NCBI GenBank assembly: GCA_026387405.1
Contig: JAPLLV010000025.1
Span: 44,009 to 108,008 of the forward strand
Reading direction: 5' to 3'
Source: Candidatus Omnitrophota bacterium
GTDB taxonomy: Bacteria > Omnitrophota > Gorgyraeia > Gygaellales > Profunditerraquicolaceae
Length of the DNA stretch: 64,000 bases
The first letter of the stretch is position 1. Every line of letters starts with the position of its first letter. Shown here one piece after another: positions 463 to 36,786 of the stretch. The notes under the pieces were generated by a model, which was not told the DNA's origin, did not search any database, and was given only the letters and a program-made list of their open reading frames with translations. The position numbers and the translations under genes are program-made.

Positions 463-891
463 ATGAGGAACCATAAGTATTTTATGTTGTTAGCTGTGGT
501 CACGGCGTGCATAGCAGGTATATTGTTATTGGCTAAAGGTGTCTCTCCGGCAGCCAGCCAGTCGAAACAAAAGGCCGATATGGCCAGGACATCCAACACC
601 AATAATAGCAAAACGAATATAGCAAGCCTGTCTGGTAGCGTGTCTGCCGATTGGAAAACAGAGAAGACGGCGATTTATAAGGAATCGGATAAAGTAATGG
701 AAGAGCTGAAAAAATTACCCGAATTTAAAGATATAGCCGCAAAAAATGCCCCTCAGGCACTGCTAAATCGGTTTGGAGCAAAGGTGAACGAAAAAGTCGC
801 TAATAATTTAGGCATTCCCGTGAAGGATGTCATTAAGGCAATCGACGAATTAATCGCGGAAAACAATAAAACCAGCGCTAAAAGAAAATAG
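463..891 (+). CDS. hypothetical secreted/membrane-anchored protein
   Basis: Strong SD (AAAGGAGGAG) 8 nt upstream of ATG. N-terminal hydrophobic signal/anchor (FMLLAVVTACIAGILLLA), then a low-complexity Ser/Asn/Lys-rich region. No recognisable family. Confidence 0.45.
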   Translation: MRNHKYFMLLAVVTACIAGILLLAKGVSPAASQSKQKADMARTSNTNNSKTNIASLSGSVSADWKTEKTAIYKESDKVMEELKKLPEFKDIAAKNAPQALLNRFGAKVNEKVANNLGIPVKDVIKAIDELIAENNKTSAKRK

Positions 892-909
892 TTTTACCGC
901 GTCTATATT

Positions 910-2847
910 ATGAAGAATAAAGCACGGGCTTTTTTTTGGCTATGCCTCGTGTTGTTGGTGCTAATTAAAATCGCGGTTATTATTAATTTCTTCGGCTTTG
1001 TCGATATCTCGGCTAAATATAACCTTTTTATCAGCACCAATATTGCTCGAGGCTTAGCGCCCAATCCGCTTATTTTCCAGCAAAGTCTTCCTTATGCCGG
1101 AGGTGGCCATTTTGTCTTCAGCCTTGTTGCAGTTCCCTTTGTTTGGTTGTTAGGACCCTCATATTTTTCCCTGAGATTAGCCAGTTTAGTATTCCTCATT
1201 GCGACTTACATTATGTTGTTCATGCTATGCAAGCGTTACTTTGGTTTAAGGACAGCTATTTTTGCCTCTTTAATGTTTATTATAACACCCGGATTGTTAT
1301 CTCTATTTTCCGTGGAAGGGGAAGGAAGGCATTTCCATTTAAACCTTTTATTTCTCTTTTGCCTTGCTTTATTTGCCAAGATACATGAATCCAGGCGTCC
1401 GCTATATTATACGCTTTTTGGGTTGGCCTGCGGCTTGGGTGTATATTTTTACCCTGCTTTCTTGATCAGCGTTTTTGTGTTTTTTCTATTTTTATTAATA
1501 GATGCGGATTTAAGCAGGCCTGACTTTATCTTTCATTTCGCGCTTACAACTGTAGGCATAGTTTTATTCGCTGAACTAATTGAATTTGGCGTGCCATGGT
1601 ATAGAACCGTCTATGCTGTAATTTTCGATAACCCTGTCAAAAACATTAGTAACGTAGATAATATCGCTGCCATAATTAATCGTTTTGTTATGATTTGGGT
1701 TAAGAACTTACCAAATATATTCTCATCTTCTATTGAGCATTTTAACTATTTAAGCAACCAGCCAATCGCCGCATATTTTAATTTCTTGTCAGGCCCGCCC
1801 CAGATTGTCTTACTGACGAAGATATCTTTGGAGGTTTTCCGGGCATCTTTGATTACGATCTTAGTTTTGTCGTCTTGGTCTGCAATTAAAATTGGAAAGC
1901 GGGTATTCAATAATTTACTGAATTTGCGGGGAAGAAAAATTGTCCCCACCAATGAATTCATATATCTTTTTCTTTTCACCCATCTTTTTATCTACATTTT
2001 TATCTATAGCTTTAATAATGAAGGAATCGGCAATTATAAGTATTTTCTTCCTCTCTTTTCTAACATCATAATTTTTATTGCATATTTTTTGAATAAAGCT
2101 TGGGGGAAAAGTAAATATTTTTTCATAGGTTTAGCTGTCGTTATATTCTTCCCCGGGGTTTCTTATACATATTCTGTTTTCGCCCGGACACCCGAATCAT
2201 TAAAAAATCTGTATAAACATGGTATCTATTTTTATGAGCATCAGTGCGGAGAGATTGCCACAAATAAATCTCTCTTAATCCATAAGTTTATGTGCCAGAA
2301 GCTAAATATCAATATGTGTCACCAGCTGGGTATATATTATGCGGAACGTTTTACTTTGGATTCGGCAAGCCAAGATTTCGAATATATCAGCAACGGTGAT
2401 TTTAAAAAATTAAGATATCTATATCAGGGATACATAGATAAAACCACGGCAAATTTGAAAGGGGATGTTAATGGAGTTATCGTCGAAATCAATAAGTTGG
2501 ATATTAACTACAGAAGATTCGGTTATCTGGGCCTAGGAGAAGGGATTATCCCAGTGTATGAGTCAGGCAATTTCTATGACGTCAATAACAATTTTGAAGA
2601 ATGGAGGGTGGTTATTAAAAATTGCGTTCTTCATATCCCCGAGGAATATAAAGAATATTTTTTCGAAGGCGCAGGAGAGGGGCTTGCGAGATTATTTGCG
2701 CAAGCGTATAGTCCAACCATTATAAATGACGGCAGTTTATATGACGCCGGTATGTTGGATAAGTTTCTTAATATCGTTGAGGCGCCTGCTTATAAGAAGG
2801 CATTCCTGGCAGGTTTTTTTAACAAAGATATCTGGGCACCTTTTTAG
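910..2847 (+). CDS. GT-C-fold polytopic membrane glycosyltransferase (ArnT/PMT_2-like) with C-terminal soluble domain
   Basis: About 11 N-terminal TM helices with loop motifs paralogous to the ORFs at 7335, 10520, 15599, 17107 and 35014. A roughly 250 aa non-membrane C-terminal domain follows. Confidence 0.6.
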   Translation: MKNKARAFFWLCLVLLVLIKIAVIINFFGFVDISAKYNLFISTNIARGLAPNPLIFQQSLPYAGGGHFVFSLVAVPFVWLLGPSYFSLRLASLVFLIATYIMLFMLCKRYFGLRTAIFASLMFIITPGLLSLFSVEGEGRHFHLNLLFLFCLALFAKIHESRRPLYYTLFGLACGLGVYFYPAFLISVFVFFLFLLIDADLSRPDFIFHFALTTVGIVLFAELIEFGVPWYRTVYAVIFDNPVKNISNVDNIAAIINRFVMIWVKNLPNIFSSSIEHFNYLSNQPIAAYFNFLSGPPQIVLLTKISLEVFRASLITILVLSSWSAIKIGKRVFNNLLNLRGRKIVPTNEFIYLFLFTHLFIYIFIYSFNNEGIGNYKYFLPLFSNIIIFIAYFLNKAWGKSKYFFIGLAVVIFFPGVSYTYSVFARTPESLKNLYKHGIYFYEHQCGEIATNKSLLIHKFMCQKLNINMCHQLGIYYAERFTLDSASQDFEYISNGDFKKLRYLYQGYIDKTTANLKGDVNGVIVEINKLDINYRRFGYLGLGEGIIPVYESGNFYDVNNNFEEWRVVIKNCVLHIPEEYKEYFFEGAGEGLARLFAQAYSPTIINDGSLYDAGMLDKFLNIVEAPAYKKAFLAGFFNKDIWAPF

Positions 2848-2848
2848 T

Positions 2849-4231
2849 ATGATCAAAAGCATATGTTTAGTTTTTCCGCGCTTTAAATATCCATCAGGGG
2901 ATCCGCCCTTAGGGCTCTGTTCTTTAGCCGCTTATCTGAGGGACAGATTAAAGGTGGAGGTTTCCATCTTGGATGCGACATTCCATCCTTCGCTTGATTA
3001 CGTATCGCAATATCTGAAATCCAAGAAACCAGAGCTGGTAGGAATTTATTTTTCTACCCTGATGTATGAAAAAGCAAGGCTTATCGCGCAGATTGCCAAA
3101 AAAACAGGAGCTATCGTGGTCGGGGGAGGCCCCCACGCTACCATAAGCCCTGAATCTGTTATTGATGACGTTGATATAACAGTGCTGGGTGAAGGGGAGG
3201 AGACCCTGCGCGAACTAGCCATGATTCTTCCCTCGTTAGACCTATCCCAGATCAAGGGGATCTGGTATAAAGACGGACAAGGCAATGTCCGCAAAACTCC
3301 CCCCAGGGATGTCATGGTAAATCTGGATTATATAGGTTTTCCCGCTCTGGACCTTGTTGAGATGGAGAGATATTTTTTGTACTGGCATTATCTTGATATC
3401 ATGACATTTAGTGCGCGAGGAATAAATATAATGTCCTCAAGAGGCTGTCCCTTTAGCTGCACCTTTTGTCAGCCCACCCTAAAAAAGCTTTTCGGTGATA
3501 AAGTGAGATACAAAAGTCCCGATTATTTGGCCGAAGAAATAACGTACTATATGCATACTTTTAATGTCAATATGTTCTTTTTCCATGATGATACTTTTGC
3601 CGCGGATAAAACCTGGGCGAATAGTTTTTTCGATATGCTGGAAAAAAGAAGACTAAATATCGTTTGGGGATGCAATACCCGGGTTAACAATATGGACGAG
3701 TCCATGATGCGCCGGATGTACGAAGTTGGCTGCCGTGTTATTCACTTTGGCATAGAGTCCGGCTCCCAGCGGGTCTTAGATGAGATTTACGCAAAAAGAA
3801 TTACTTTGGACCACGTAAACAAAGTAATTGAAATAGCCAAGAGAGTGGGAATGTATTCCTCGGGATTTTTTATACTAGGCGCTCCCGGAGAGACCAAGAT
3901 GGAGATGAACAAGACCATAAAACTCGCCCTTTCTTCAGGGCTCAATGAAGCCGCTTTTTCAATTGCCACCCCCCTCCCCGGAACGATGCTGTACGATATG
4001 ATTAAAAATGACAGAAATTTTACCATCAGCAAGGATTATTCCGACTTCGATTATTATAGAGGATTGTCCTATGCTGACCATAATTCTAGAAACAGACAAT
4101 TGATCCTTGCCCAACGCAAGGCCTTGTTTTTATTTTATCTCCATCCCCTGAGATTGCAATATATCCTCAGGCATTTTTTTAGCTTTAGAGGAATGGTTAA
4201 GCTTTATATTAAAATAAGAAGGTTTTTTTAG
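2849..4231 (+). CDS. cobalamin-binding (class B) radical SAM enzyme
   Basis: N-terminal B12-binding-like region (VVGGGPHATISPE), then CxxxCxxC (SSRGCPFSCTFCQP). Start placed at ATG 2849, directly after the upstream stop; the longer ORF in the track overlaps the previous gene. Confidence 0.8.
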   Translation: MIKSICLVFPRFKYPSGDPPLGLCSLAAYLRDRLKVEVSILDATFHPSLDYVSQYLKSKKPELVGIYFSTLMYEKARLIAQIAKKTGAIVVGGGPHATISPESVIDDVDITVLGEGEETLRELAMILPSLDLSQIKGIWYKDGQGNVRKTPPRDVMVNLDYIGFPALDLVEMERYFLYWHYLDIMTFSARGINIMSSRGCPFSCTFCQPTLKKLFGDKVRYKSPDYLAEEITYYMHTFNVNMFFFHDDTFAADKTWANSFFDMLEKRRLNIVWGCNTRVNNMDESMMRRMYEVGCRVIHFGIESGSQRVLDEIYAKRITLDHVNKVIEIAKRVGMYSSGFFILGAPGETKMEMNKTIKLALSSGLNEAAFSIATPLPGTMLYDMIKNDRNFTISKDYSDFDYYRGLSYADHNSRNRQLILAQRKALFLFYLHPLRLQYILRHFFSFRGMVKLYIKIRRFF

Positions 4232-4258
4232 TTGTCAGCATAACGTCGTTACATTTAT

Positions 4259-5833
4259 ATGAACATAGAATATTCACGCAATGCCCCGACTCCGCTGAAA
4301 CAAAAAATAGCGTTAATCTTCGGGGGAATTCTACTTTTTTTGGTTCTAATAGAAGCGATATTGCGTTTGGGCGGGTATGTCGTGTTGCGCATGCGAGACC
4401 GCAGCAATGCCCTGGCGCTAAAAAATAAGGGCAACTATGTGATTTTATGCATCGGAGAATCTACTACTTTTTGCGGAGGGACTAAAGACGCATATCCTAC
4501 CCAATTAGAAGAGATATTAAATCAGCATAATTTAGGGATTCGTTTTAGCGTGGTGAACCTGGGTGTACCGACGGATACTTCCCATCTGGTGGGACAATTA
4601 GGAAGCAACATAGATAAGTATAATCCGCAAATGGTTATTGCGATGTTGGGGATTAACGATGGCGCGGGGTATTTGCGCAATATTGATAATAAGGGAATAT
4701 CTCCAATCAGCAGATTCATTAATTCTTTAAGGGTGTATAAGCTATTGAAGCTTATTCGGTTACATCAAGAGGCAAATAAACCGATAAAAGCCAATATCAG
4801 CAACGAAGCATTATTGGCGCAGTCATACATCAAGAATGGTTTGCGTTTTTCAGAAGCGACCAAGGTTTTAGAGACCGCCCTCTCGCTCGATAATAACAGA
4901 GACGATTTGCACTGCGCGTTGGGAGAAGTGTTTAGCCTGCAAGGTAAATCTACAGAGGCCAAAGAAGAATTCAGAAAGGCTATTAATCTGAACCATTATA
5001 ATGATAAGGCGTTCTGTAACTTGGCAGCTATTGCGGAGAAAGAAGTAAATCTGCAAGAAGCAGAAATCCAACTTAGGAGCGCGTTCGCCTTTAACCCCGG
5101 CAGTGCAAAAATTGCGTTTGAGCTAGGTTTGATTTGTATGAAGCAAAACAAATTTCAAGAAGGAGAAGGCTTTTTGCGTAAGGCCGCTAGTCTGAATACC
5201 AAAGATTACTCAAGCATATATTCGCGTTGCGGATGGGAATTATGCAATAGGGGGCAGATTGAGGCCGGCGAGAAGGTCTTCCAAGAGTGTATCGCGAATC
5301 AGCCCAAAAACACATCTTGTTATATAGATTTAGGGAAATTTTATCTCGAGAAGTCAAGATTCACCGATGCAGAGGCGTTATTTAAAAAAGCGCTCGAGCT
5401 CGATTCCCCTAATGAATTGATCTACGGGGCATTAGCCGCAATCTACATGAATATGAATCAAAAAGAACTTGCGGAAATATATTATAGAAGAGCAAACCTG
5501 ACCAGGTTGGAGTATTATAATCCTCTGACGGTAAGTAATTATTTAAAGCTCAGGCAGATTGTACAGGAGCGAGGAATACGGTTAGTATGTGTCCAGTATC
5601 CTGTGCGCAGCATTGAGCCGCTAAAGAAGATATTTGCCGACGACAAAGACATCATTTTCGTGGATAACGAAAAAATATTTAGAGAAGCTTTGTATCGCGA
5701 GGGCTATAGTTCTTATTTCAGCGATATGTTCGGTGGAGATTTCGGTCACTGCACGCGCAAAGGATACCGTCTCCTCGCCGGAAATATTGCCAATATACTG
5801 ATAAAAGAATTATTCAAGAAGAACAAAAGTTAG
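4259..5833 (+). CDS. membrane-anchored SGNH-hydrolase-like protein with inserted TPR repeats
   Basis: N-terminal TM anchor. SGNH block I variant (LCIGESTTFCGG), block III (GINDG), C-terminal block V (DFGHCTRKGY). About 250 aa of TPR-like repeats lie between them. Confidence 0.6.
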   Translation: MNIEYSRNAPTPLKQKIALIFGGILLFLVLIEAILRLGGYVVLRMRDRSNALALKNKGNYVILCIGESTTFCGGTKDAYPTQLEEILNQHNLGIRFSVVNLGVPTDTSHLVGQLGSNIDKYNPQMVIAMLGINDGAGYLRNIDNKGISPISRFINSLRVYKLLKLIRLHQEANKPIKANISNEALLAQSYIKNGLRFSEATKVLETALSLDNNRDDLHCALGEVFSLQGKSTEAKEEFRKAINLNHYNDKAFCNLAAIAEKEVNLQEAEIQLRSAFAFNPGSAKIAFELGLICMKQNKFQEGEGFLRKAASLNTKDYSSIYSRCGWELCNRGQIEAGEKVFQECIANQPKNTSCYIDLGKFYLEKSRFTDAEALFKKALELDSPNELIYGALAAIYMNMNQKELAEIYYRRANLTRLEYYNPLTVSNYLKLRQIVQERGIRLVCVQYPVRSIEPLKKIFADDKDIIFVDNEKIFREALYREGYSSYFSDMFGGDFGHCTRKGYRLLAGNIANILIKELFKKNKS

Positions 5834-5839
5834 ACTAAA

Positions 5840-7285
5840 ATGCGGATAGCCTTTATAAATTCTTGTTTAGGAGGAGACTTTAGTGCTATGGATATAGGTA
5901 TCACGTCCTTAGCCACGTACTTAAATGAAAGAACGGACCATAAAGCCGGTATCATAGATTTAACTTTTCATAGGAAGTCATGGAAAGAAGAACTAAGAAA
6001 AGAAATAGGAGAGAAAAAACCAGATATAATCGGGATTTCCTGTAACACGATGTATATGCAATATGTGAAAGCGATCATGGCGGAAGTGAAATCTAATTAC
6101 AGATTGCCTGTTATTCTGGGAGGACACCATGTTTCAATATACCCCGGAGAAACCATCGCCTTGCCTGAAGTTGACGCGGTATGCATAGGAGATGGAGAGG
6201 ATGCGCTTTGTGAATTTCTAGATCGTTTGTCTGCCGGGAAAAGTATCTCCGGTATCGCAGGCATCTGGGCAAAAGAGGATCGCAAAATCATAAAGAATGC
6301 GGTAGGTTGTTTTCGCCAGAATATCGATGATTTACCGATCCCGAATTGGGACCTCTGGAAAGACCTGGATAAATATTTTTATCATCTTGGGATGCTTTAT
6401 ATAATAGGAAGCAGGGGTTGTCCTTATAAATGCACCTTTTGCGATGCCCACGGAATTGCCGAGGTAGTCCGGGGTCGTTATTTTCGTAACCGGGACCCGG
6501 TAAAGTATGCGCAGGAGATCGGATACCAGTGGGAGAAATATAAGAATAGAGATTTGCGGCTCTTCCAGTTATTCGACCCGGTTTTCACGATGTCCCATGA
6601 TTGGGTGGCGGCATTTTGCGATGAATATAGAAGGCAAGGCTTACATAAGAAGATCAAATTCAGCGTATTTTCAAGGATAGACCATCTGGACGCGCAGAAA
6701 ATAAAAATATTGGCCCAATCAGGTTGCGGAATAGTCAGGGTTGGGGTCGAAGCCGGAGATGAATTTATCAGGCAGGAGATCTATCAAAAGAGAGTTTCTG
6801 ACGAGGATATCCGGAAGATATTCAGGTTATTGCACGATGCGAGGATTTGCATCACTGCTTATTACATATTAGGGGGGCCTTCCGAGTCACCCGGGACACT
6901 TCAGAAGACAATTGATTTGGCGCTGGAGCTTGACGCTGGACGGTCAGCCTTCTTTATATACAAACCTTTGACCAAAGAAGGTGTCAAACAGGTCTACGAT
7001 CTGGGCGGCTGGATTGACGGGTATAGATGGGGTAAGGCCGACAATATCACTTTTGACGCAGTTATTAATAATAAAGAGTTGACGCCGAAACAAGTCGAAT
7101 GGTATCAATTTAAGGCTTATTTTTTTACCTTTGTACGTAGGCTATTGCGGATTTTAAAAAGGCAGAAGCTGAGATATCTGATTTATCTCATTGTTTATCT
7201 GTATCGAGGGTTTAAATATGGCTTAAGTTTACCTTATATGGTTATTTATTACCACATCTACGGATATGATAATATAGATAAATAG
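5840..7285 (+). CDS. cobalamin-binding (class B) radical SAM enzyme
   Basis: B12-binding-like N-terminus (ILGGHHVSIYPGE); radical SAM cluster motif IGSRGCPYKCTFCDAHG. Confidence 0.8.
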   Translation: MRIAFINSCLGGDFSAMDIGITSLATYLNERTDHKAGIIDLTFHRKSWKEELRKEIGEKKPDIIGISCNTMYMQYVKAIMAEVKSNYRLPVILGGHHVSIYPGETIALPEVDAVCIGDGEDALCEFLDRLSAGKSISGIAGIWAKEDRKIIKNAVGCFRQNIDDLPIPNWDLWKDLDKYFYHLGMLYIIGSRGCPYKCTFCDAHGIAEVVRGRYFRNRDPVKYAQEIGYQWEKYKNRDLRLFQLFDPVFTMSHDWVAAFCDEYRRQGLHKKIKFSVFSRIDHLDAQKIKILAQSGCGIVRVGVEAGDEFIRQEIYQKRVSDEDIRKIFRLLHDARICITAYYILGGPSESPGTLQKTIDLALELDAGRSAFFIYKPLTKEGVKQVYDLGGWIDGYRWGKADNITFDAVINNKELTPKQVEWYQFKAYFFTFVRRLLRILKRQKLRYLIYLIVYLYRGFKYGLSLPYMVIYYHIYGYDNIDK

Positions 7286-7334
7286 GTTACTTTGGGTTTG
7301 TGCGCATAGAACTGAATAGAAATTTATTTTATAA

Positions 7335-9059
7335 ATGAGAAGAGTTTTGTTAGAGATTAATAAACGGAAGGCATGGTTTTTATTGCTATTCCTGTTTTTA
7401 TTTTACTTAACCAATAACTATGTTTGGTTAAACAGTAAAGGTAGTTTTGGCGATGGTCCAGATATGATATCTCATTTAAAAACTACTATTAGTATTTATC
7501 CAAAATTGTTATCATTAATAAACCCCGGTATAGGCGAATCGCGTTTAGATAATCTGATAAAAATACTTCAGTTTAGCCAATGGTGGCCACCCATGATATA
7601 TATAAATGCAGCTATTTTTTATTTGTTCTTTGGTTTATCAAATCTTGTCGTACAAATGTCCAATATTGTATTCTTTTTGATCTTGATTGTTTCCACCTAT
7701 CTGATAGGCAGAGAATTGAAAGATGATAATAACGGCATGTTGGCAGCTTTTCTAATTTCTTTTTACCCCGTAACATTCGGGCTAAGTAGGAATTTTGGTA
7801 TTGATTTTCCATTGACTGCTATGGTATCACTGGGGATATTTTTTCTTATTAAGACCGACGGTTTTACAAGCAGAAAATATTCTTTACTGTTTGGGATTGT
7901 TTCTGGGTTGGGAATTTTGACAAAATGGGCTTATCTTTTATTTATTCTTGGCCCCCTTTTTTACACGCTCTTTGCTTTCCCGCCTGAGATAGAGAATGTT
8001 AAAATTAAAAGAGGTAAAATATATAATTTACTCTTCGTATTTCTGTTGGTATTTTCAATTTCGTATATATGGGCATCTTCTCATTGGAGATTTATTTTTG
8101 AATTTGGGTGGCCCAGGCTTACCGCGAATTATTTACCAAAAGATGCTTTAAGCAAATATGATAATGAACATTTAATGACATCTTTAATTAATGAACCCAT
8201 AGGCATAAAAATTTTTTCTCGCGAATGGTTTTTATTTTATATTTTTCACATACTTAATAATATAAGTATATTTTTTTCTATTGTTTTTATAATAAGTTCG
8301 ATCGTTTTTGTTAGATTCGCTGGGGATCGGAAAAAGAAACTCATTTTAATTTGGATAATTTTCTCGTATTTGTTTTTCACTTTTTGTTCTCTTAAAGTTG
8401 GGCGTTACTATGTTCCTGTTCTGCCAGCAATAGCCGTAATTTCTGCCTTTGGCATACAAGAGATAAAAACCAATCTCTTAAGAAAAGGGTTAATTATAGT
8501 GATAGTCTTGGTAGGGATATTTCAGTTTTATCGCTTATCTTTTGATTTTATGAGTAGGTTTCCATTAAGGTTTATTTATATACATAACGTGGTCCACCCG
8601 TTATTTAAATCACCATCTTCAGATATCATTGGAACATATGCCTTCCCGCCTCGTGTTACTAATTTTGAAGATACCGCTGTTAGTTTAGGCAAGGAGATGA
8701 TAGCTGATTATCAAGGTGTAACGCCAATGAGCGTAATGATCAAAAGTGGCTACGGAGAGCGTGAAAATATTTATTATTTCCTTTGTCTCCATTATCCAAG
8801 CGCTAGGATTGTAATATGGAATAATGATTATAACCCAGACGAAGCCGGGAGCTTCGATTATCTTATTACTATACAAGCTATTGATTCCGGTAGGCCTGAG
8901 TATGGTTTATTCGATTTATGTAGTTCGAAAGGGAATTTTAGTAATGAGAAAAATATAAAGCCAAAAAATATCTTTGAGAAGGAGTACACAAGAATTTTGG
9001 CAAAACATCAGATTTTCCCAGGCGGCACGCATGTATACTTAGTCGGGCATAAATCATAG
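7335..9059 (+). CDS. GT-C-fold membrane glycosyltransferase (ArnT/PMT_2-like)
   Basis: Polytopic membrane protein. Clear paralogue of the 15599 ORF (…RKYSLLFGIVSGLGILTKW… vs …RRYSLLFGIVTGIGALIKG…). Confidence 0.65.
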   Translation: MRRVLLEINKRKAWFLLLFLFLFYLTNNYVWLNSKGSFGDGPDMISHLKTTISIYPKLLSLINPGIGESRLDNLIKILQFSQWWPPMIYINAAIFYLFFGLSNLVVQMSNIVFFLILIVSTYLIGRELKDDNNGMLAAFLISFYPVTFGLSRNFGIDFPLTAMVSLGIFFLIKTDGFTSRKYSLLFGIVSGLGILTKWAYLLFILGPLFYTLFAFPPEIENVKIKRGKIYNLLFVFLLVFSISYIWASSHWRFIFEFGWPRLTANYLPKDALSKYDNEHLMTSLINEPIGIKIFSREWFLFYIFHILNNISIFFSIVFIISSIVFVRFAGDRKKKLILIWIIFSYLFFTFCSLKVGRYYVPVLPAIAVISAFGIQEIKTNLLRKGLIIVIVLVGIFQFYRLSFDFMSRFPLRFIYIHNVVHPLFKSPSSDIIGTYAFPPRVTNFEDTAVSLGKEMIADYQGVTPMSVMIKSGYGERENIYYFLCLHYPSARIVIWNNDYNPDEAGSFDYLITIQAIDSGRPEYGLFDLCSSKGNFSNEKNIKPKNIFEKEYTRILAKHQIFPGGTHVYLVGHKS

Positions 9060-17105: not shown

Positions 17106-17106
17106 A

Positions 17107-26709: not shown

Positions 26710-26856
26710 AACTATTTCCTTTTTGATAACCGCGCAGGTTGATTTAAAAAGTATAGCATAGAGGTATAAAAAAGGTAAATAAATTTTGATAGTTTTTATG
26801 TACCCCCCGGGTATAATATATGCGGTTTTTTGATGTTTGAAAGAAAGGGTTGTGGG

Positions 26857-29373: not shown

Positions 29374-29385
29374 ATTCGGTGTTTT

Positions 29386-30339
29386 TTATGCGTAAAGAGA
29401 TTTTTTGGTTTTGTGCGCATTTCGCCAAAAGCGTAAATATGTTATAAGGATAGCAAGGGTGCGCTTTACCTTCTCAATATCGAAATAAGCGTAAGTTCTA
29501 TAACCTGAGAAATATGTCTTTTGAAGGAATTGTTTGAAAGCAGGATAACTTGCATGAATGAGTTCCGCACCTATATCCCAAGGTTTGGGAGAGTCCAGGA
29601 AATGGCATAATATATCGTGGTGGAAGCGTAAATCTAGTACGGGTTCCCGGGTAAAGAAAGGCACATTGAATTTTTCCGGCAGAAAAGCGACACGGTTATA
29701 GAGTATTATATTGAGAATAGCTTGATCAGCGCTGGGGAATTGAGAGGGGTGTTTGTCCATAAGCGCAACGCATTTTTCCGTGTAGTTATTTTCTCTCCAT
29801 CTGCGCGCGTCAATAAGCATGACGCCGGCGTTGAAATATCGCGCATTATCCGGCATGCCGCATTTAAGCAGGGCGTCGCGCTCTAAGTGCCAGACGTTCT
29901 TAATGATAGTGTTTGAGACAACCGCTGCGACATTATTGTTTAGCGGGAAAGAAAATAATGCGCGTAAATCAGTTAATACAAGTAAATCCGCGTCAAGATA
30001 GATAAATCGCTCTACCTTAAGGGAGTCCGGGATATGAATCCGCACCAGGGTCATTTTATTGCCATAAATCCCCCTTGATTTACCCAAATTTATAGCTGTT
30101 GTATCATAGAGATGCAATGCGTATTTTCCCGTGAATTCATGTAGTGTCATGTGCAGCCGTTTGACCCTCTCCAGATCATAATCCTTAAGAAATAAATGGA
30201 GATTAACAAAACTACCAGACAAGGCAAGTGAGGCCAGTGCGGAATATAATGTTACGTGCAGGCCGATTTCCATATTTCTGTCAGCGGCTAGGGCAATTTC
30301 TAATCGTTTCTGGTTCTGTGAACCTTTATAATTATCCAT
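29386..30339 (-). CDS. GT8 glycosyltransferase (LPS-type retaining glycosyltransferase family)
   Basis: DxD YLDADLLV and the NAGVMLIDARRW motif typical of GT8. Confidence 0.75.
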   Translation of the reverse strand: MDNYKGSQNQKRLEIALAADRNMEIGLHVTLYSALASLALSGSFVNLHLFLKDYDLERVKRLHMTLHEFTGKYALHLYDTTAINLGKSRGIYGNKMTLVRIHIPDSLKVERFIYLDADLLVLTDLRALFSFPLNNNVAAVVSNTIIKNVWHLERDALLKCGMPDNARYFNAGVMLIDARRWRENNYTEKCVALMDKHPSQFPSADQAILNIILYNRVAFLPEKFNVPFFTREPVLDLRFHHDILCHFLDSPKPWDIGAELIHASYPAFKQFLQKTYFSGYRTYAYFDIEKVKRTLAILITYLRFWRNAHKTKKSLYA

Positions 30340-31504
30340 GGCCGTTGGTATTATTAATAAGGTTCGGACGCAGATATGAGCAGGATAGTTGCTTTATCAG
30401 CAGAATAATCATCAAGAGTATGAGAACGGATACATATTTTAATGGTATCGGAGGGCCTAGGTTAGAAAGATAGGGATAATAACTAAGAAATGAAGAGAGG
30501 GCTAATATTATAGGAATAAAGAAAAATCGTGGATGATAAAAAACAAAGACAATGCTAAGAATATCCGCCAGAAAAAAATACCGCTCATGCATCATTGGCG
30601 AGATGAAGGGGATAAGTAAGGAGCTGAACATCGCGATATCGATATAGGCTTGCGCTTTCCGTCCTTCTTCATATTTAATATAGGAGAATGCGAGTGTCAT
30701 AAGAAGCATTATCAATAAAACAGAGAGCCCGCCGGATAATAAGATCCCCGGATTATTAGGGATCCATTGGTAGATATTAGGGGCATTAAAGGTTAAGCTG
30801 TAATGCCTCTGGATCGATACTATTTTCCAATCGTAAAATAATAAATCAGTAAACGGCTTCCCGGCCAACCAGCATGGAATGATCGAAAGGATGTAGATGA
30901 GGGGAGTATAGATAAGCAACTTCCATATCCTGCCCTTATTTTGTAAGGCCCAGGTAGCGTAGAGAGGAAGCAGGATCAGCGGTGCCACGGGTTTACAGGT
31001 TAAAGAAGCCGCAAATAATATAACTATCTTCCAGTCGTTAGTTGAGTTGTCGAGCAATAGATAATAAAGAGAGGCCATGATGAGGGCGATGTGTACTGTA
31101 TCCCACTGCCCCCAATAACTACTGTTGATGATTACGGAAGGGTAGAAAAGGAAACACCAGCATGCCAAAACAGCGGGGAATGTATTATCTTTATAGCGAA
31201 GTTTAACAATCTTGTATACGAATAAACATATTACCGCTTCAAAAAAAAGCGAAATAAACTTAATTGCATACAATGCTTTTATAGGTATAAGGGTAACTAA
31301 TAATAAAAAGTACAGGAATATATGTGATACATGGAAAAAGTAACTCAGGCCGCTTATCCCATGCGTACGCAAATACTCATAATAGGCAAGGTGCATATTT
31401 GTATCGTAGCTGACGAAATAAAATAAGGGCACCCGGATGCTTATGGCCAGACAAATTCCTAAGAGGAGGAGAAATCGCGCTTGTTTTATCCGCCAAAGTT
31501 TCAC
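30332..31504 (-). CDS. polytopic integral membrane protein, possibly a GT-C/DUF2029-like glycosyltransferase
   Basis: Ten or more TM helices and no soluble domains. Only the context suggests a membrane glycosyltransferase or flippase-like role. Confidence 0.45.
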   Translation of the reverse strand: MKLWRIKQARFLLLLGICLAISIRVPLFYFVSYDTNMHLAYYEYLRTHGISGLSYFFHVSHIFLYFLLLVTLIPIKALYAIKFISLFFEAVICLFVYKIVKLRYKDNTFPAVLACWCFLFYPSVIINSSYWGQWDTVHIALIMASLYYLLLDNSTNDWKIVILFAASLTCKPVAPLILLPLYATWALQNKGRIWKLLIYTPLIYILSIIPCWLAGKPFTDLLFYDWKIVSIQRHYSLTFNAPNIYQWIPNNPGILLSGGLSVLLIMLLMTLAFSYIKYEEGRKAQAYIDIAMFSSLLIPFISPMMHERYFFLADILSIVFVFYHPRFFFIPIILALSSFLSYYPYLSNLGPPIPLKYVSVLILLMIILLIKQLSCSYLRPNLINNTNGHG

Positions 31505-32634
31505 GCAGGACTCCCTGCTAATCTGTGTTCATGGTGTTGCCAAGCCATTTTGTTTAGGATTAAAAAATGCAGTAATTTCTCAGCGTACCCATATTTGCGC
31601 ATACATCCGGCTAGGCATGGTTTTGTGCACTCCAGTATCTGGATACGCTGCCGCTGGGCAGTTTTTGAGAACCAGAGTGTTTGTAGAGAATCACCGCGGA
31701 CATTTCCTATAGGGGGGAACCAAGGGCATAATTGCACCTCTCCGGTGTGTGAAATATAAAGATTGCGAAAGCCAACGGTGCAGGCATGCCGGGTTCGTAA
31801 TAGATCGGTATTTCTGAAGAACGCCTTTATTAAGGCTAAATTATTTTTGGGGGTAATTATAGGAAATCCCTTACGTTTCATCTCAATCAGCGTTTCTACT
31901 TCTTTGTCTAAAGCGTCAAGGTGATCAAGGCGGGCCAATGGCAGCGCCAGGGTTTTTTCGGATAATGGTGTCGAGAACGCGGGTAGTTTGGGATGTATGC
32001 CTAGAATAGGTTGGAAATCCACGCTGTCAACGCCCAGTTCTGTTGCCCAGCGGGCAAAATGGCTTAACTCTTTATAGGTATCGCGCGTAACAAGGCAGAG
32101 TACTCCTATGCGCGGACGCGGATTTTTCGTTCGGATATAACGTATGGCCGATACAATACGTTGATGTAGCTGCGTATCCCCCTTGTAATGATTATGTAGT
32201 TCAGGTCTAACACTGTTTAGAGAGAATACTATAGAATCTACGCCGGTACGAAGTAGGGTATCATACATATCAGGAGTAAATACAATACCGTTTGTGCTTA
32301 CGTTCGTGCAAACTCTAACTTTATTTGCATAAGTTAATAAATCCAGGAAACCATTTTTTACAAAAGGTTCTCCTCCGGTAAAAGACATATAACAAGATCC
32401 GAGCCACCTGTAGAGTTGCGTGACAATATCTTTGCACTCATCGAGCGATAGTTCGTGAGGGTCGGGTTCATTTTGCCACCTCAGGCAGGTAACGCAGCGG
32501 GCATTGCATTGGTAGGTCACCGAGAAGTATATTACCTGCGGGGTATTTAAGCACCGGCGGACCCGCGTGCCTATATTCAATAGCGCATCATTTCTGACAA
32601 CGCTCAAGGCGTATCTGAAGAATTTCTGTTTCAT
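31501..32634 (-). CDS. radical SAM/SPASM-domain enzyme (paralogue family A)
   Basis: VTYQCNARCVTCLRW, FTGGEPFV, C-terminal LCPWFPPIGNV…CTKPCLAGC. Confidence 0.75.
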   Translation of the reverse strand: MKQKFFRYALSVVRNDALLNIGTRVRRCLNTPQVIYFSVTYQCNARCVTCLRWQNEPDPHELSLDECKDIVTQLYRWLGSCYMSFTGGEPFVKNGFLDLLTYANKVRVCTNVSTNGIVFTPDMYDTLLRTGVDSIVFSLNSVRPELHNHYKGDTQLHQRIVSAIRYIRTKNPRPRIGVLCLVTRDTYKELSHFARWATELGVDSVDFQPILGIHPKLPAFSTPLSEKTLALPLARLDHLDALDKEVETLIEMKRKGFPIITPKNNLALIKAFFRNTDLLRTRHACTVGFRNLYISHTGEVQLCPWFPPIGNVRGDSLQTLWFSKTAQRQRIQILECTKPCLAGCMRKYGYAEKLLHFLILNKMAWQHHEHRLAGSPA

Positions 32635-32803: not shown

Positions 32804-33931
32804 CTATTCTTTTCTCTCTTTTGTAGCCAGGCAAGTTCCATAGAGCATCCACCAGATAAGACTTACTTCGGGGAGAAAGAAGCTAAAGTCGATAAAATTA
32901 TGGGCCAGGAATGCCGAACAAGCAGCTAAGAGCGCGGCATTTTGTTTTATTTCGGAGGAATTTTTTAGCCGTAAAATAGCGCCTTTAAAAATTACAAAAA
33001 TCAGCCACAGGAATGATGTTATCCCCAAGACCCCCGTTTCCGCCCAGAGCTGTAAATAAGAGTTATGGGCGTAGCGTGCCTGCGGCAGATTAAAATTTCC
33101 CAGTCCTACCCCGGTTAATGGATAGGAGCCGATGATTTTTAACGTATCCTGCCAATAGCCAAGCCGCATGGTTGCGGAGAATATAGGATGGATATGCTGT
33201 TTTCCCGTTATCCACCTTAAGCCAAACACTATTCCAATTATCAATAATAAGCTGGTCAGTAAAATAATCCCTCTTTTCTCTATTTTTCCTTTCAGATAAA
33301 AATAGGCCGATAGAGCCAGAAAAGCGCTTAGCAGGCCACCTAATGATTTTGTCAGGAATAAAGCCAAAAAAAGCGGCAAAAGAGCGAAAGTTTTATATCT
33401 ATTTAAGAGGGCAAGCGGGATTGTCATGGCCAGGTAGCCCGCTAAAATATTCGGCGTTACAAAAGGAAAGAATACGCGCCTGCGCTGGATATAATCTAAA
33501 GTGAAATCGGAAGTAATATTATGGCGGGTCAGATACTCTGACACATGCCTGAAGCCAAAAAAATACTGGTAGATAGCCAGTAGGGCTATGATTATTCCGG
33601 AGTAGACTACGATATTAACGATTTGTTTTTTATTTTTTTCCGCAAGGGTTGCACCGAAGATTAACAGCAGCATACCGGTCACATATTTGTAGAGTTCGCT
33701 AAGGCTGTTAAGCCTGTTTTGCGAGAAGGAGACTGAGATTATAAGAGCAAGGGAGAATAAAAGAAGGGGGTAGACGACAGTTTTTAAGTTTTTAAAAGAG
33801 GGCTTTTTGAAGATGACCCAACCGGCTAAACAAGTCGCCAGAAGAATGGAATAGAAATAATTGGCATAAGGGAATGCCAGGGAAGAGATAAAAGGGCGGA
33901 TGAAGATTAGAATTAGAAGAACGCTTAACAT
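32804..33931 (-). CDS. O-antigen ligase / polymerase family membrane protein (Wzy_C-like)
   Basis: Polytopic protein with the periplasmic-loop motif RLGYWQ…GVGLGNF…AHNSYLQLWAETG, characteristic of WaaL/Wzy_C. Confidence 0.75.
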   Translation of the reverse strand: MLSVLLILIFIRPFISSLAFPYANYFYSILLATCLAGWVIFKKPSFKNLKTVVYPLLLFSLALIISVSFSQNRLNSLSELYKYVTGMLLLIFGATLAEKNKKQIVNIVVYSGIIIALLAIYQYFFGFRHVSEYLTRHNITSDFTLDYIQRRRVFFPFVTPNILAGYLAMTIPLALLNRYKTFALLPLFLALFLTKSLGGLLSAFLALSAYFYLKGKIEKRGIILLTSLLLIIGIVFGLRWITGKQHIHPIFSATMRLGYWQDTLKIIGSYPLTGVGLGNFNLPQARYAHNSYLQLWAETGVLGITSFLWLIFVIFKGAILRLKNSSEIKQNAALLAACSAFLAHNFIDFSFFLPEVSLIWWMLYGTCLATKERKE

Positions 33932-33950
33932 TATGCTATAATTTTAGCTT

Positions 33951-34913
33951 ATGAGGCAAGTATTGTCAAAGGAATTGGTAAGCGTCGTTGTGGTAAGCGC
34001 TAAAGACAGCGATTACCTTAAGGCGTGCCTGGATTCGATCAAGGGGCAAGACTATCCTCGCGTAGAAGTTTTTCTTATCGACACGTCGGATGCGCATGAT
34101 CTAGGTCAAGGCCTGGCCGGCGATTATCCCTTTATGACATTGTGTCATAGTTCCGGCGCCTCCTACTGTCAGGCATTAAATATGGGCATAGAAATTTCCA
34201 GGGGTAAGTTTATCCTTTGCCTGAACGACGACGTAATCTTGGACAAAAGTTTTATCCAGGAGGCGCTTAAGGGGTTCGCCGTCAGTAAGAACATAGGGAT
34301 GGTTAGCGCAAAGGTGCTGCGTTTTGATAAAAGAACCATAGACAGCGCCGGACTACGGTTGAGTATCTGGTGTACTGCCAAAGAGCGTGGTTACGGCAGA
34401 CAAGACAAGGGGCAGTTTGAAAAACAGGGGTTTGTGTTTGGGGTAGGGGGGGCAGTTGCTTTTTACCGCAGAGAGATGCTTGAACGGATTAAGCTAGAGG
34501 GAGAATATTTCGATAATGATTTTGGGTTTTTCTATGAAGACCTGGATGTTGCTTGGCGTGCCGAGCGCCACAGATTCCGCGGATACTATATTCCTACGGC
34601 GGTTGCCTATCACCTGCGCGGTTTAACGACACGCAAGGGCCGGGGTATCGATAAACCCTTTGCCCGCAGATTTTTGGATGACGAATTGCACGCCGGCCTT
34701 ATTAAAAACCGTTACCTGACTGTGATCAAGAATGAACGCCTATTCAACTTTATCCTGCATCTTCCTTTTATTTTTTTATATGATTGCGTAAGCTGGGGTT
34801 ATATTTTTTTGTGTAAAAGAGCCGTAATCGGGTATTTTTTGCGCAATTCCGGATGTTTTAAGCGCGCTTTTAGAAAAAGAAAAGAAAAGCAAGGCTCATT
34901 TTTATATTCCTAG
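33951..34913 (+). CDS. GT2 glycosyltransferase
   Basis: VSVVVVSAKDSDYLKACLDSI…NDDV. C-terminal region paralogous to the 13782 ORF. Confidence 0.75.
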   Translation: MRQVLSKELVSVVVVSAKDSDYLKACLDSIKGQDYPRVEVFLIDTSDAHDLGQGLAGDYPFMTLCHSSGASYCQALNMGIEISRGKFILCLNDDVILDKSFIQEALKGFAVSKNIGMVSAKVLRFDKRTIDSAGLRLSIWCTAKERGYGRQDKGQFEKQGFVFGVGGAVAFYRREMLERIKLEGEYFDNDFGFFYEDLDVAWRAERHRFRGYYIPTAVAYHLRGLTTRKGRGIDKPFARRFLDDELHAGLIKNRYLTVIKNERLFNFILHLPFIFLYDCVSWGYIFLCKRAVIGYFLRNSGCFKRAFRKRKEKQGSFLYS

Positions 34914-35013
34914 TAGTGTATCTGTAAGAAAATAATATGGTTGTAATGGCTAACTTGAAGTCTGGGCTAATCTTTTTCAAGAATTACCGTTTGTCTTCAA
35001 GGCTATCTTCCCG

Positions 35014-36786
35014 ATGAATATTTTCTGCCAGCGAATTTTTAAAAATATATCAGGAATACATAAGGTTATTTTTGTCTTAGTTTTAATAGCCCTGTTGGTG
35101 CGAATCCCTCTTTCGTTGATTAGATATTTTGACCCGGATGAATTTGAACATTTGCATGCCGCGCGTAACATTTATCATGGGATGGTTCCATACAAGGATT
35201 ACTTTGACCATCACACGCCTTTTTTCCACGCCTTTCTTTCTGCATTTTATATTTTCTTAGCAGATAAAATACAATTGATCTTCTTGGCGCGCTTCTTCAT
35301 GATTTTATTTACTGGCGGCATATTATATATGACCTATCGCATTGCGAAATTATTATATGGCGTAAACATCGCTTTATATTCAGTAGTATTTCTTAGTTAC
35401 GTCGTAATGTTTCAGGAAAAAACCTTAGAGATCAGAACTGACTTGCCGGCAGTTATTTTCTTACTTTTGAGTATCTATTTGTTTATGTTGGGAATGCAAG
35501 ATCAAGATAAACACGAGAGAAAAAGACAAAGGGATCACTTCCTGATGTCCGGTGTTACAATCTCTTGCGCGCTTCTTACGAATCAAAAGATGTTTTTTGC
35601 CATTTTTGCGCTACTTCTTATGTGGATTTGGGTTCTTTTTAATGGACATAGAAAGTTGTCTTTAAAAGAATGGTCTGGTCCGATATTATGGTTTATATTT
35701 GGTTTTTTTATTCCTTTCGGTATAACATGCCTATACTTTTCATTAAGCAACGCGCTGAAAGAATTTATCTATAGGTGCTTCGTAATGAATATATTGTGGA
35801 AAACCCGGTTTTTACCTTATCAATATGTTGGACAACTAATAATACAAAATCCATTCTTCAGCGTGTTAAGTGCGTTGGGTTTGTTATTTTCTACCTTCGC
35901 AGTATTTAAGAAAAAAAAGATACCCGATTATTATTTTGTGCCGGTATTCGTTACCTATGCATTTATAATCGGACTTTTTATTATTCGTGTTCCGCAGCGT
36001 CAATATTACTTATTTTTTATCCCTTTGTTGGCAGTTTATTGTGGTTTTGCTTTCCAGACGTTTATTGGATATTTTTCTTTTCACAATATTAAGGAACAAT
36101 GGAATAAGCAAAATTACTTGTATTTTGGTTTGATGCCCGTATTTTTGATAATAGTTTTATTGATCCCCTCTATGGTTACTTCCATTAGAATATATGGCGT
36201 TTTTTCAACTCCAGACAATAAACCTTACTTGATTTATGTTTTGCTGGGTCTGGTATCCGTATTATTTCTTTCTGGTTTTGCATTTTTTAGAGGCAAAAAA
36301 CAATTCTTTGCATTAATGCTAATGGTTTGTTTTTTATACCTCCCCTTTATAGAAACGTGTACAGAATTTTTAAAAAAGGATTGGAGGTTAAAATGTTCCA
36401 ATGTAGATCAATTGGATGAAATCAGATTCATTCTTCGGAATACGAATCCACAGGATACTATTTTTGATGGATTTAGGGGGACCGGGGTTTTCCGTAACCA
36501 AGCGTATTACTATTTCTTTTTGCATGCTGAAATTCAGAAGATGTTAACGCCCAGGGAGTCTTCGACAGATATCGTGGCGGCGCTACGCAATATGAAGCCA
36601 AAATTTGTAATTTATGATTGGTGCGTGGGAAGTCTACCGGGAGAAGTGAGGGCTTATATTAATGATAATTATACGCCGGTTCGTAAGGGAGAGATTTATC
36701 TGTCTTCTGATGAGACTACGGTTGTGGAATGGCGTAAATTTAGAAGACCGATATTGTTTCGGCTGAATCCTCGGCCAGCGCAATAA
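35014..36786 (+). CDS. GT-C-fold membrane glycosyltransferase (ArnT/PMT_2-like)
   Basis: Polytopic protein; first-loop motif FDPDEFEHLHAARNIYHG, DE-type. Confidence 0.65.
   Translation: MNIFCQRIFKNISGIHKVIFVLVLIALLVRIPLSLIRYFDPDEFEHLHAARNIYHGMVPYKDYFDHHTPFFHAFLSAFYIFLADKIQLIFLARFFMILFTGGILYMTYRIAKLLYGVNIALYSVVFLSYVVMFQEKTLEIRTDLPAVIFLLLSIYLFMLGMQDQDKHERKRQRDHFLMSGVTISCALLTNQKMFFAIFALLLMWIWVLFNGHRKLSLKEWSGPILWFIFGFFIPFGITCLYFSLSNALKEFIYRCFVMNILWKTRFLPYQYVGQLIIQNPFFSVLSALGLLFSTFAVFKKKKIPDYYFVPVFVTYAFIIGLFIIRVPQRQYYLFFIPLLAVYCGFAFQTFIGYFSFHNIKEQWNKQNYLYFGLMPVFLIIVLLIPSMVTSIRIYGVFSTPDNKPYLIYVLLGLVSVLFLSGFAFFRGKKQFFALMLMVCFLYLPFIETCTEFLKKDWRLKCSNVDQLDEIRFILRNTNPQDTIFDGFRGTGVFRNQAYYYFFLHAEIQKMLTPRESSTDIVAALRNMKPKFVIYDWCVGSLPGEVRAYINDNYTPVRKGEIYLSSDETTVVEWRKFRRPILFRLNPRPAQ

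Follow-up and report, generated by a model that had tools for sequence, protein, structure and literature searches.

What does a chromosomal block encode in which putative membrane-embedded glycosyltransferases (GTs) of the GT-C type stand among cytoplasmic GTs and radical S-adenosylmethionine (SAM) enzymes, and which of these genes define it? The question is raised by a 64,000-nucleotide stretch of a Candidatus Omnitrophota bacterium (positions 44,009 to 108,008 of contig JAPLLV010000025.1, assembly GCA_026387405.1), here called the window, in which a preliminary description had recognized an envelope-glycan island at positions 463-36786, built around seven GT-C paralogues. The block is a surface-glycan biosynthesis island of at least 47 kb in all, the window holding its right-hand 37 kb. 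Besides the seven predicted GT-C enzymes, a GT2 resembling Dpm1 and ArnC, five further GT2, one GT4, one GT8, a Wzy_C protein and SGNH proteins, the window contains nine radical-SAM genes (four B12-binding, four SPASM and one other) and a UDP-galactopyranose-mutase (UGM)-like flavoenzyme, which the first inventory had overlooked. With modest confidence we read the whole as an ATP-binding cassette (ABC)-transporter-type pathway for a lipopolysaccharide (LPS)-like surface glycan, whose sugars would be tailored by radical-SAM enzymes in the cytoplasm and which would then be decorated by GT-C enzymes at the periplasmic face.

The limits first drawn for the island were supported at one end and wrong at the other. 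A right boundary near 36.8 kb is supported, since GC content goes up there from ~0.41 in the island to ~0.46 and conserved flanking genes follow, namely two Ddl-like ATP-grasp genes, a KamA-like radical-SAM gene, EF-G, YchF and PurH. On the left, an assembly of the same strain (L008) shows that the island begins 10 kb or more before the first letter of the window, and on the same strand this upstream part encodes a B12 radical-SAM enzyme, a GT4, a HEAT-repeat protein, a GT2, an AsnB-like amidotransferase, a SPASM radical-SAM enzyme, an eighth GT-C of 565 amino acids (aa) and an SGNH protein. The repeat protein (366 aa, HEAT/PBS-lyase type; 1871-2971 of L008) sits between the conserved GT4 and GT2 and is missing in the closest relatives (L021-L024). 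Within the window, the listing of open reading frames (ORFs) and Pfam scans showed a dense block, ~98% coding, from the left edge to ~36.8 kb; every ORF between 463 and 25641 is on the plus strand, as first described, with many overlaps and gaps of no more than 184 bp. Promoter and terminator scans gave no excess above shuffled sequence and are uninformative on operon structure, including the single very long operon suggested for this run, while tRNA and Rfam scans were empty and offered no integration-site or riboswitch clue.

The count of seven GT-C genes in this locus was borne out. Six of them exceed the gathering cut-off (26.1 bits) of the PMT_2 family (PF13231), all on the plus strand and named here, like the other genes, by their lower coordinate: 910..2847 (34.2 bits; 645 aa, ~10 transmembrane (TM) helices, with an Asp after TM1), 7335..9059 (56.1 bits; 574 aa), 10520..12692 (41.8 bits), 15599..17105 (51.0 bits), 17107..18669 (50.1 bits; 520 aa, with weak NCBIfam matches to Agl23 and mannosyltransferases) and 35014..36786 (42.8 bits, with further PMT matches; 590 aa, ~13 TM helices). 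The last of these closes the island and is absent from a relative, L019, in which the flank is conserved. An Asp 5-15 residues after TM1 occurs in all seven PMT_2 paralogues, the six of the window and the one upstream, with first-loop motifs such as GPDMISH, GPDEGKH, GWDVCHH, DPDEFEH (35014), GVDSSNH, VDIS and WLDEAA (17107). The fold was predicted for one PMT_2 paralogue, 7335, whose AlphaFold2 model (pLDDT 78.4, pTM 0.85) had GT-C enzymes as all of its top 24 Foldseek matches in the PDB; the best was ArnT (5f15, E 1.7e-9, TM-score 0.56-0.60), followed by STT3, AglB, ALG12/9, AftA and PglB, and Pmt4 and Pmt1/2 matched much more weakly than ArnT and STT3. In this model the loop that follows TM1 (helix 2-33) contains D40, D43 and H47, with D40 and D43 in the loop and the start of the next helix. 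A sequence search against the PDB with the same protein returned a marginal ArnT match only (phmmer E 0.095).

The seventh gene, 30332..31504 on the minus strand (390 aa, 9 TM helices), matches no Pfam or NCBIfam model, including PF09594 (GT87/DUF2029), and owes its assignment to its homologues and its fold. Among 118 homologues (E down to 5e-53), many are named Gpi18-like or GT87 mannosyltransferase and many carry PF09594, PF13231, PF05208 or PF03155. Its model (pLDDT 89.4) is closest to PimE (9dm5), GPI-MT-I (9wno) and ALG3 (9s6r; TM-score 0.65), the first 19 matches being all GT-C-fold proteins (GT-C enzymes and PIG-U), and D34, at the start of the first loop, is invariant in 36 sequences. 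GT-C folds were thus predicted for both modelled proteins and a first-loop Asp, the catalytic candidate, was found in all GT-C paralogues; by family, fold and this residue the window membrane ORFs are best regarded as GT-C enzymes. They are deeply diverged from one another, 33% identity being reached only by 7335 and 15599, and beyond its own strain 7335 has homologues at no more than 35% identity over more than half its length, plus one match of 39% over 36% of the query; the alignment of the 7335 family contains no conserved stretch.

The preliminary description had counted six intact paralogues and one broken. Two are broken in the window, 10520 (ORFs 10520-11929 and 11856-12692) and 15599 (ORFs 15599-16483 and 16521-17105), and both are intact in read assemblies of the same strain that are 99.98-100% identical to the window, where they encode a single PMT_2 protein of 752 aa and a single protein of 534 aa, respectively. 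Against these assemblies, 86 bp are missing from the window after 11907 and 98 bp after 16477; both segments are ordinary coding sequence, each loss causes a frameshift in its GT-C gene, and no repeats flank either deletion. The split forms are those deposited with the metagenome-assembled genome (MAG), as MCX5696753.1 and MCX5696754.1 for the first and MCX5696758.1 for the second. Either errors in the MAG assembly or a variant allele would account for the breaks.

Enzymes of this kind need a lipid-linked donor in the reading proposed here, and a candidate donor synthase is encoded between GT-C 574 (7335) and GT-C 752 (10520). The GT2 at 9206..9958 (plus strand) has only DPMS (5mlz, E 1.3e-6) and ArnC as PDB matches, and its best NCBIfam matches, all under their cut-offs, are PpgS (76 bits against 370), AglJ (65 against 325) and a dolichyl-phosphate (Dol-P)-hexose transferase (58 against 375); the protein is without C-terminal TM helices. 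We consider it a candidate polyprenyl-phosphate-sugar synthase of the Dpm1/ArnC/PpgS type, a family-level assignment with scores under the equivalog cut-offs. The pairing of a Dpm1-like GT2 with GT-C genes had been pointed out before, and glycosylation at the periplasmic face from lipid-phosphate sugars is a reasonable reading of it, given the identity of the GT-C proteins and the position of this GT2 between two of their genes. Another GT2 at 14614..15612 (plus strand), recognized by Pfam, with ~3 C-terminal TM helices, generic GT2 PDB matches and 42-46% identical orthologues in L018 and L019, is possibly a second lipid-phosphate-sugar synthase.

The radical-SAM content is the most unusual feature of the island. 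The CX3CX2C motif is intact in all nine window genes. Four on the plus strand, 2726..4231 (motif CPFSCTFC, true start likely near 2849), 5840..7285, 22143..23639 and 26830..28305, match both PF02310 and PF04055 above cut-off and belong to the B12-binding class. Four others, 20983..22110 on the plus strand and 25666..26709, 28297..29373 and 31501..32634 on the minus strand, match PF04055 and PF13186 above cut-off, with no match at equivalog level, and are of the SPASM class, 31501 being a 40% identical paralogue of 28297. The ninth, 24541..25641 (plus strand), falls in neither class. Two of the conserved genes were compared with solved structures and both have a sugar-acting enzyme as nearest relative, AprD4 for 26830 (E 2e-25) and the sugar decarboxylase BlsE for 24541 (E 1.2e-16); the best PDB matches of 5840 are AprD4, TsrM and TokK. 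In NCBIfam, HpnJ is the best match of 26830 (232 bits) and 2726 (167 bits), and a "lipid biosynthesis B12-binding/radical SAM" family that of 5840, all under cut-off. Since the family scores fall far under the curated cut-offs, no reaction can be assigned to these enzymes. Radical-SAM action on lipid-linked sugars has precedents in HpnI/HpnK/HpnJ and Cds (PMC13459092), and for a glycan locus with 9-11 radical-SAM enzymes, or with arrays of up to nine as in relatives, no precedent was found in the literature searched.

How far this gene content extends in the phylum was surveyed with the upstream GT4 (398 aa) as anchor, which has 233 relatives among the GTDB species representatives; the best 80 were used, nearly all from Omnitrophota MAGs and 47-57% identical over the full length. 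ORFs within 10 kb on each side of the conserved GT4 were classed with hidden Markov models built from the window paralogues and two further alignments. A radical-SAM gene of any class was present at 72 of the 80 loci, the B12-binding class at 65 and the SPASM class at 56, followed by GT2 (51 loci), GT-C (35), SGNH (23), carbamoyltransferase (18) and Wzm and/or Wzt (18). Directly upstream of the conserved GT4, tandem arrays reach nine SPASM paralogues of ~330 aa (L053 1-9891, L084 70-9870) or seven B12 radical-SAM genes (L071 103-9376), and eleven loci encode fusions of B12, radical-SAM and SPASM domains of ~1,100-1,400 aa. GT2s similar to 9206 were found only twice around the anchor in the 80 loci, neither adjoining a GT-C gene.

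The closest loci, L021-L024, share gene order with the window strain and encode orthologues 35-69% identical to its genes, arranged as UGM-like, Wzm, Wzt (1,132 aa), B12+SPASM fusion, B12 radical-SAM, GT4, GT2, AsnB, SPASM, GT-C, GT4b, GT2 and B12 radical-SAM. Compared with them, the window strain has ~12 kb extra between the upstream GT-C and GT4 12671, comprising SGNH, a 142-aa protein, GT-C 645, a B12 enzyme, SGNH-TPR, a B12 enzyme, GT-C 574, the Dpm1-like GT2, a lipoprotein and GT-C 752. This segment includes the GC minimum of the window (0.35-0.38 at 8-12 kb), and when set against the closest loci the stretch from GT-C 645 to GT-C 752 has the appearance of a low-GC insertion of 12 kb. Wzm and Wzt were found in L021-L024, L057 and L014, the last with a GT9 as well.

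Other syntenic loci (L018, L019 and L020) were obtained through the conserved radical-SAM gene 28297, which has 53-64% identical orthologues in other Omnitrophota. Common to the three are the radical-SAM genes 20983 (44-62% identity), 22143 (49-58%), 24541 (51-66%), 26830 (67-68%), 28297 (53-62%) and 31501 (49-62%), and the GT2 genes 23627 and 14614 (38-46%), and a pair formed by a large membrane protein gene and an SGNH gene recurs in them. The Ddl-like/KamA-like flank also adjoins the island in L019, with flank genes 69-76% identical against 39-67% for the island genes, which therefore marks a conserved chromosomal site with variable content. No GT-C orthologue of the window at 35% identity or more was present in L018-L020; the best GT-C matches elsewhere are 35% for the upstream GT-C in L021 and 40% for the 534-aa GT-C in L057. 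What relatives share is thus not what the island had been said to be built around: its radical-SAM, GT4 and GT2 genes, with Wzm/Wzt in the nearest relatives, form in these comparisons a scaffold conserved across the phylum, and the GT-C, Dpm1-like and SGNH genes a variable, low-GC shell, as would be expected for surface-antigen diversification. The window contains one example of a radical-SAM-rich type of surface-glycan island that occurs Omnitrophota-wide. A direct link between radical-SAM chemistry and sugar metabolism in a related island is given by L014, where a gene flanked by PMT_2 GT-C genes (6009-8213) encodes a 734-aa protein in which a radical-SAM domain is fused to a DegT/DnrJ/EryC1 sugar aminotransferase.

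The GT4, GT8, Wzy_C and SGNH genes of the preliminary description were confirmed. The scaffold GT4 at 12671..13789 and GT2 at 13782..14642, both on the plus strand and assigned by Pfam, are 46-60% and 53-56% identical, respectively, to their counterparts in L021 and L057, and two more Pfam-assigned GT2 genes lie at 20103..20978 and, in the conserved core, at 23627..24544 (both plus strand). The flavoenzyme at 18682..20091 (plus strand) scores 557 bits with NF005548, an unnamed family with a cut-off of 389, and only 38.7 bits with the UGM family TIGR00031, and matches the eukaryote-type UGM 4dsg over its full length (residues 4-451, E 1.1e-18). On the minus strand are the GT8 at 29386..30339, similar to LPS alpha-galactosyltransferases (Glyco_transf_8, 133 bits; NCBIfam PRK15171, 93 bits, under cut-off), and the Wzy_C membrane protein at 32804..33931, resembling O-antigen ligases and polymerases (54.7 bits, cut-off 31.7), with a 39% identical orthologue in L019; its divergent partner, the GT2 at 33951..34913 (plus strand), has a 50% identical orthologue there in the same arrangement. 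SGNH genes are represented on the plus strand by 4259..5833, in which Pfam recognizes an SGNH/GDSL domain fused to TPR repeats behind one N-terminal TM anchor, and by a fragment at 55..384, the 3' end of a 338-aa SGNH/GDSL gene that starts upstream of the window and is complete in the L001 and L008 assemblies, with Lipase_GDSL_2, after the 565-aa PMT_2 GT-C.

Two small exported proteins without family match are each encoded immediately upstream of a GT-C gene on the plus strand, one of 142 aa with an N-terminal TM or signal segment and a stretch rich in Ser, Thr and Asn (463..891), the other a predicted lipoprotein of 126 aa with lipobox LSGC (10143..10523), deduced from its translation and called at 126 aa in L001. 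Paralogy between the two is unsupported (BLASTP E 1.2).

These components can be arranged in a five-step route to the LPS-like surface glycan. Cytoplasmic GT4, GT2 and GT8 enzymes, assigned by family, would assemble a glycan on what may be a polyprenyl carrier, with a furanose nucleotide sugar probably supplied by the UGM-like flavoenzyme and a uronic acid possibly amidated by the AsnB-like amidotransferase encoded upstream. The nine radical-SAM enzymes of the window and at least two encoded upstream would tailor nucleotide- or lipid-linked sugars, C-methylation, deoxygenation, epimerisation, decarboxylation and ring contraction being candidate reactions; their requirement for SAM, a reductant and, in the B12 class, cobalamin places them in the cytoplasm. 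The tailored glycan would be exported by a Wzm/Wzt ABC-2 transporter like that of the syntenic relatives. At the periplasmic face the seven GT-C enzymes, or eight with the upstream one, would add branch or cap sugars, a role to which their fold, Asp motif and adjacency point, using polyprenyl-phosphate sugars provided by the GT2 9206 and possibly also by the TM-anchored GT2 14614. SGNH proteins may finally add or remove O-acyl groups, and the Wzy_C protein may ligate or polymerise the product, most likely onto an LPS-type lipid anchor. Such an anchor is suggested by the resemblance of the GT8 to LPS alpha-galactosyltransferases, by GT9 together with Wzm/Wzt in L014 and by LptE and BamD, which flank the island in L018, so that the host would be a diderm with LPS transport. 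The AprD4, BlsE and HpnJ relatives, the radical-SAM::DegT fusion of L014 and the HpnI/K/J and Cds precedents all speak for radical chemistry directed to sugars.

Several observations weigh against this route. No Wzm/Wzt or Wzx exporter was detected in the window or in the 10 kb upstream of it (L008), Wzm/Wzt being assigned to the window strain from synteny and occurring in no more than 18 of the 80 loci, within their 10-kb flanks. A priming phosphoglycosyltransferase of the WecA or WbaP type was absent from the window, the 10 kb upstream and the common gene families of the 80 related loci, and classical nucleotide-sugar pathway genes from the window and the 10 kb upstream. A Dpm1-like GT2 immediately next to a GT-C occurred in no more than a few related loci, at 25-27% identity, and L019, L020 and L016 were the only loci in which a short GT2 adjoined a GT-C-like gene. 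Two GT-C genes are disrupted in the deposited MAG, and the matches of all radical-SAM and most GT2 proteins to their families are far under the curated cut-offs. Wzy_C proteins, moreover, also serve protein O-glycosylation, and PMT-type GT-C enzymes can glycosylate proteins.

Known systems resemble this proposal in parts. In the three-component systems (GtrA/B/C, ArnC/ArnT, streptococcal GacI/GacL and SccN/SccM, and CsbB/YfhO of Bacillus and Listeria) a Dpm1-like GT2 makes a polyprenyl-phosphate sugar and a GT-C encoded beside it transfers the sugar, at the outer face, to a glycan or lipid that has already been exported. The GT2 9206, between two GT-C genes and with DPMS and ArnC as its only solved relatives, fits this pattern; unlike those systems, the island has no recognisable GtrA/GtcA-type flippase gene, sets 7-8 GT-C enzymes against one or two candidate donor synthases, and its identity to characterised members is too low for family assignment. 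A similar logic is found in Haloferax, where AglD, AglR and AglS, with AglJ, combine a Dol-P-hexose synthase GT2 with a PMT_2-type GT-C adding the terminal sugar outside the membrane, and AglJ and a Dol-P-hexose transferase are indeed among the best NCBIfam matches of 9206, and Agl23 among those of 17107. The island host is, in contrast, bacterial, an AglB/STT3 oligosaccharyltransferase is absent, and the scores are far under cut-off.

The closest overall likeness to the proposed sequence of steps, a cytoplasmic lipid-linked glycan, a furanose derived from UGM, ABC-2 export and outer-face extension by many GT-C paralogues using polyprenyl-phosphate sugars, is offered by mycobacterial arabinogalactan and lipoarabinomannan synthesis (Glf, GlfT1/2, Wzm/Wzt Rv3781/Rv3783, Ppm1/DPA, EmbA/B/C, AftA-D, PimE). 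The 30332 protein of the island folds as PimE, and AftA and EmbB are among the fold matches. There is, however, no sequence orthology, the island paralogues being PMT_2/ArnT-like and GT87-like at the fold level only; donor genes of the DprE1/2 type are missing, the host is diderm and probably has LPS, the exporter is assigned to the window strain through synteny, and radical-SAM enzymes, at least 11 in the island, are lacking in the mycobacterial system. For the latter the comparison is with enzymes that tailor sugars in aminoglycoside and nucleoside pathways (AprD4, GenK, BtrN, NeoN, BlsE) or remodel lipid head groups (HpnI/HpnK/HpnJ and Cds), which likewise use B12-domain and SPASM/twitch architectures on sugar moieties, the alternation of GT2 and radical-SAM genes in the island recalling HpnI/HpnJ. 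The substrates of these known enzymes are small molecules or hopanoid and glycerol dialkyl glycerol tetraether lipids, unlike a surface-polysaccharide pathway.

Among the alternatives, protein O-glycosylation fares best, unlikely as we consider it to be: PMT/ArnT-like GT-C enzymes and a PglL-like Wzy_C protein would act on S-layer proteins, pilins or giant Omnitrophota surface proteins, the donors being polyprenyl-phosphate sugars and a polyprenyl-diphosphate glycan made by the cytoplasmic GTs and tailored by radical-SAM enzymes. ArnT has lipid A as its acceptor, and PMT enzymes have Ser/Thr. PMT_2 and PMT domains are present in the island, and the Wzy_C family includes PglL-type O-oligosaccharyltransferases, which, like PMT-type GT-C enzymes, glycosylate proteins in other bacteria; one of the two small secreted proteins has the stretch rich in Ser, Thr and Asn, the periplasmic SGNH protein carries a fused TPR domain, and very long surface proteins are encoded by Omnitrophota (bioRxiv 10.64898/2026.06.07.730766). 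The modelled PMT_2 paralogue is nonetheless closest to ArnT, the lipid A transferase, and then to STT3, with Pmt4 and Pmt1/2 far lower, and no MIR domain was found. The LPS-core-type GT8 and GT9 and the Wzm/Wzt genes of related loci favour a lipid-anchored polysaccharide, and no candidate acceptor protein is conserved across the loci.

Remodelling of membrane-lipid head groups is, to our judgement, improbable. Here GT2 enzymes would glycosylate a lipid and radical-SAM enzymes convert its sugar head groups, for instance to cyclitols as proposed for HpnJ and Cds, and the product would be unusual glycolipids, not a polysaccharide. The best NCBIfam matches, HpnJ for 26830 and 2726 and the lipid-biosynthesis B12/radical-SAM family for 5840, agree with this view, as do the module of alternating GT2 and radical-SAM genes, conserved in four genomes, and the HpnI/HpnJ and Cds precedents. 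The scores are, however, well under the curated cut-offs of 360-578 bits, and genes for squalene-hopene cyclase, ether lipids or tetraethers were present in no locus, which makes a hopanoid or ether-lipid version unlikely, its lipid-core genes being absent; Wzy_C, GT4, GT8, AsnB, UGM-like and SGNH proteins, an ABC-2 exporter and 7-8 GT-C enzymes are instead hallmarks of polysaccharide assembly.

An ordinary O-antigen or capsule cluster, whose GT-C and radical-SAM annotations would be incidental or concern non-functional genes (pseudogenes or MAG mis-assembly), is very improbable. The two frameshifted GT-C genes of the MAG could be taken for it, as could the GC content under the level of the flank, a trait of many horizontally acquired O-antigen loci. 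Both broken genes are, however, intact in the independent read assemblies (99.98-100% identity), the cluster motif is kept in nine of nine radical-SAM genes, orthologues are 44-68% identical across several genomes, which argues for purifying selection, and 72 of 80 species-level genomes again contain these classes of gene. To our knowledge classical O-antigen clusters are without such arrays, and none was found in the literature searched; the loci are not ordinary O-antigen clusters, which their radical-SAM arrays and the number of GT-C genes do not fit.

Least credible of all is a cluster for a ribosomally synthesised and post-translationally modified peptide (RiPP) or a cofactor, of mycofactocin or proteusin kind, in which SPASM and B12 enzymes would modify a ribosomal peptide, later glycosylated, next to unrelated GT-C genes: the maturation of RiPPs is typically the work of SPASM and class B (cobalamin-dependent) radical-SAM enzymes, relatives have up to nine tandem SPASM paralogues, and the best NCBIfam matches include MftF for the GT2 23627 (137 bits) and, in the case of the SPASM proteins, several maturases of peptides, but all scores are far under cut-off, the island is 98% coding with no precursor-sized ORF in any intergenic gap, no small-ORF family other than antisense shadow ORFs is conserved across the 80 loci, RiPP recognition element, leader peptidase and peptide-exporter genes are absent, and the radical-SAM genes stand interspersed among GT genes in a conserved glycan locus carrying Wzm/Wzt, so that the reading was rejected for want of a precursor gene.

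The right flank and the sequence beyond it show some features of their own. At 37051-40232, adjoining the island, a tandem pair of D-Ala-D-Ala-ligase-like ATP-grasp genes is followed by the KamA-like gene, of the lysine-2,3-aminomutase radical-SAM type, and the trio may produce a peptide or a modification that contains beta-lysine. The EF-G homologue that follows at 40388-42346, beside YchF, has only 652 aa, and a second EF-G paralogue with a specialised role is a possible explanation of its shortness. Further on, in a housekeeping region beyond the island (44832-47404), the end of a Mur-ligase-like gene of 509 aa, with Mur_ligase_M/C as its only domains, runs into the start of an SGNH/GDSL gene of 351 aa. 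A sensory block at 50724-57542, after a 493-aa ORF without family match, encodes a CHASE4-PAS protein, a 7TM-PAS histidine kinase and a hybrid response-regulator/histidine kinase; nothing in the analysis ties it to the island.

A wider reading, which we put forward tentatively, as plausible rather than probable, is that Omnitrophota possess a phylum-wide, two-layer system of glycan diversification not previously described, in which radical-SAM arrays act on lipid-linked or polymeric sugars, possibly by C-methylation, epimerisation, deoxygenation or carbocycle formation, and fast-exchanging GT-C enzymes act at the periplasmic side, together yielding sugar structures unknown from cultured bacteria. 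A description of a similar island was not found in the literature searched, and a 2026 survey of Omnitrophota genomes reported only generic LPS and capsule GTs in hypervariable loci (bioRxiv 10.64898/2026.06.07.730766). For studies of donor and acceptor specificity, the island provides divergent GT-C enzymes that occur naturally together with a putative lipid-phosphate-sugar synthase. More generally, its enzyme families come with conserved sets of orthologues, so that expression and assays are feasible in the absence of a culture. Most members of the Omnitrophota, an abundant group of nanobacteria, have yet to be cultured, and attachment to other cells or predation on them has been proposed for some, lifestyles for which surface chemistry would be central. 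The presence of an island packed with radical-SAM genes in most sampled species predicts that anaerobic radical modifications, giving C-methyl, deoxy, epimerised or carbocyclic sugars, are carried by a surface polymer, a chemistry whose documented cases, as far as we found, are confined to antibiotics of the small-molecule kind and a small number of lipid head groups.

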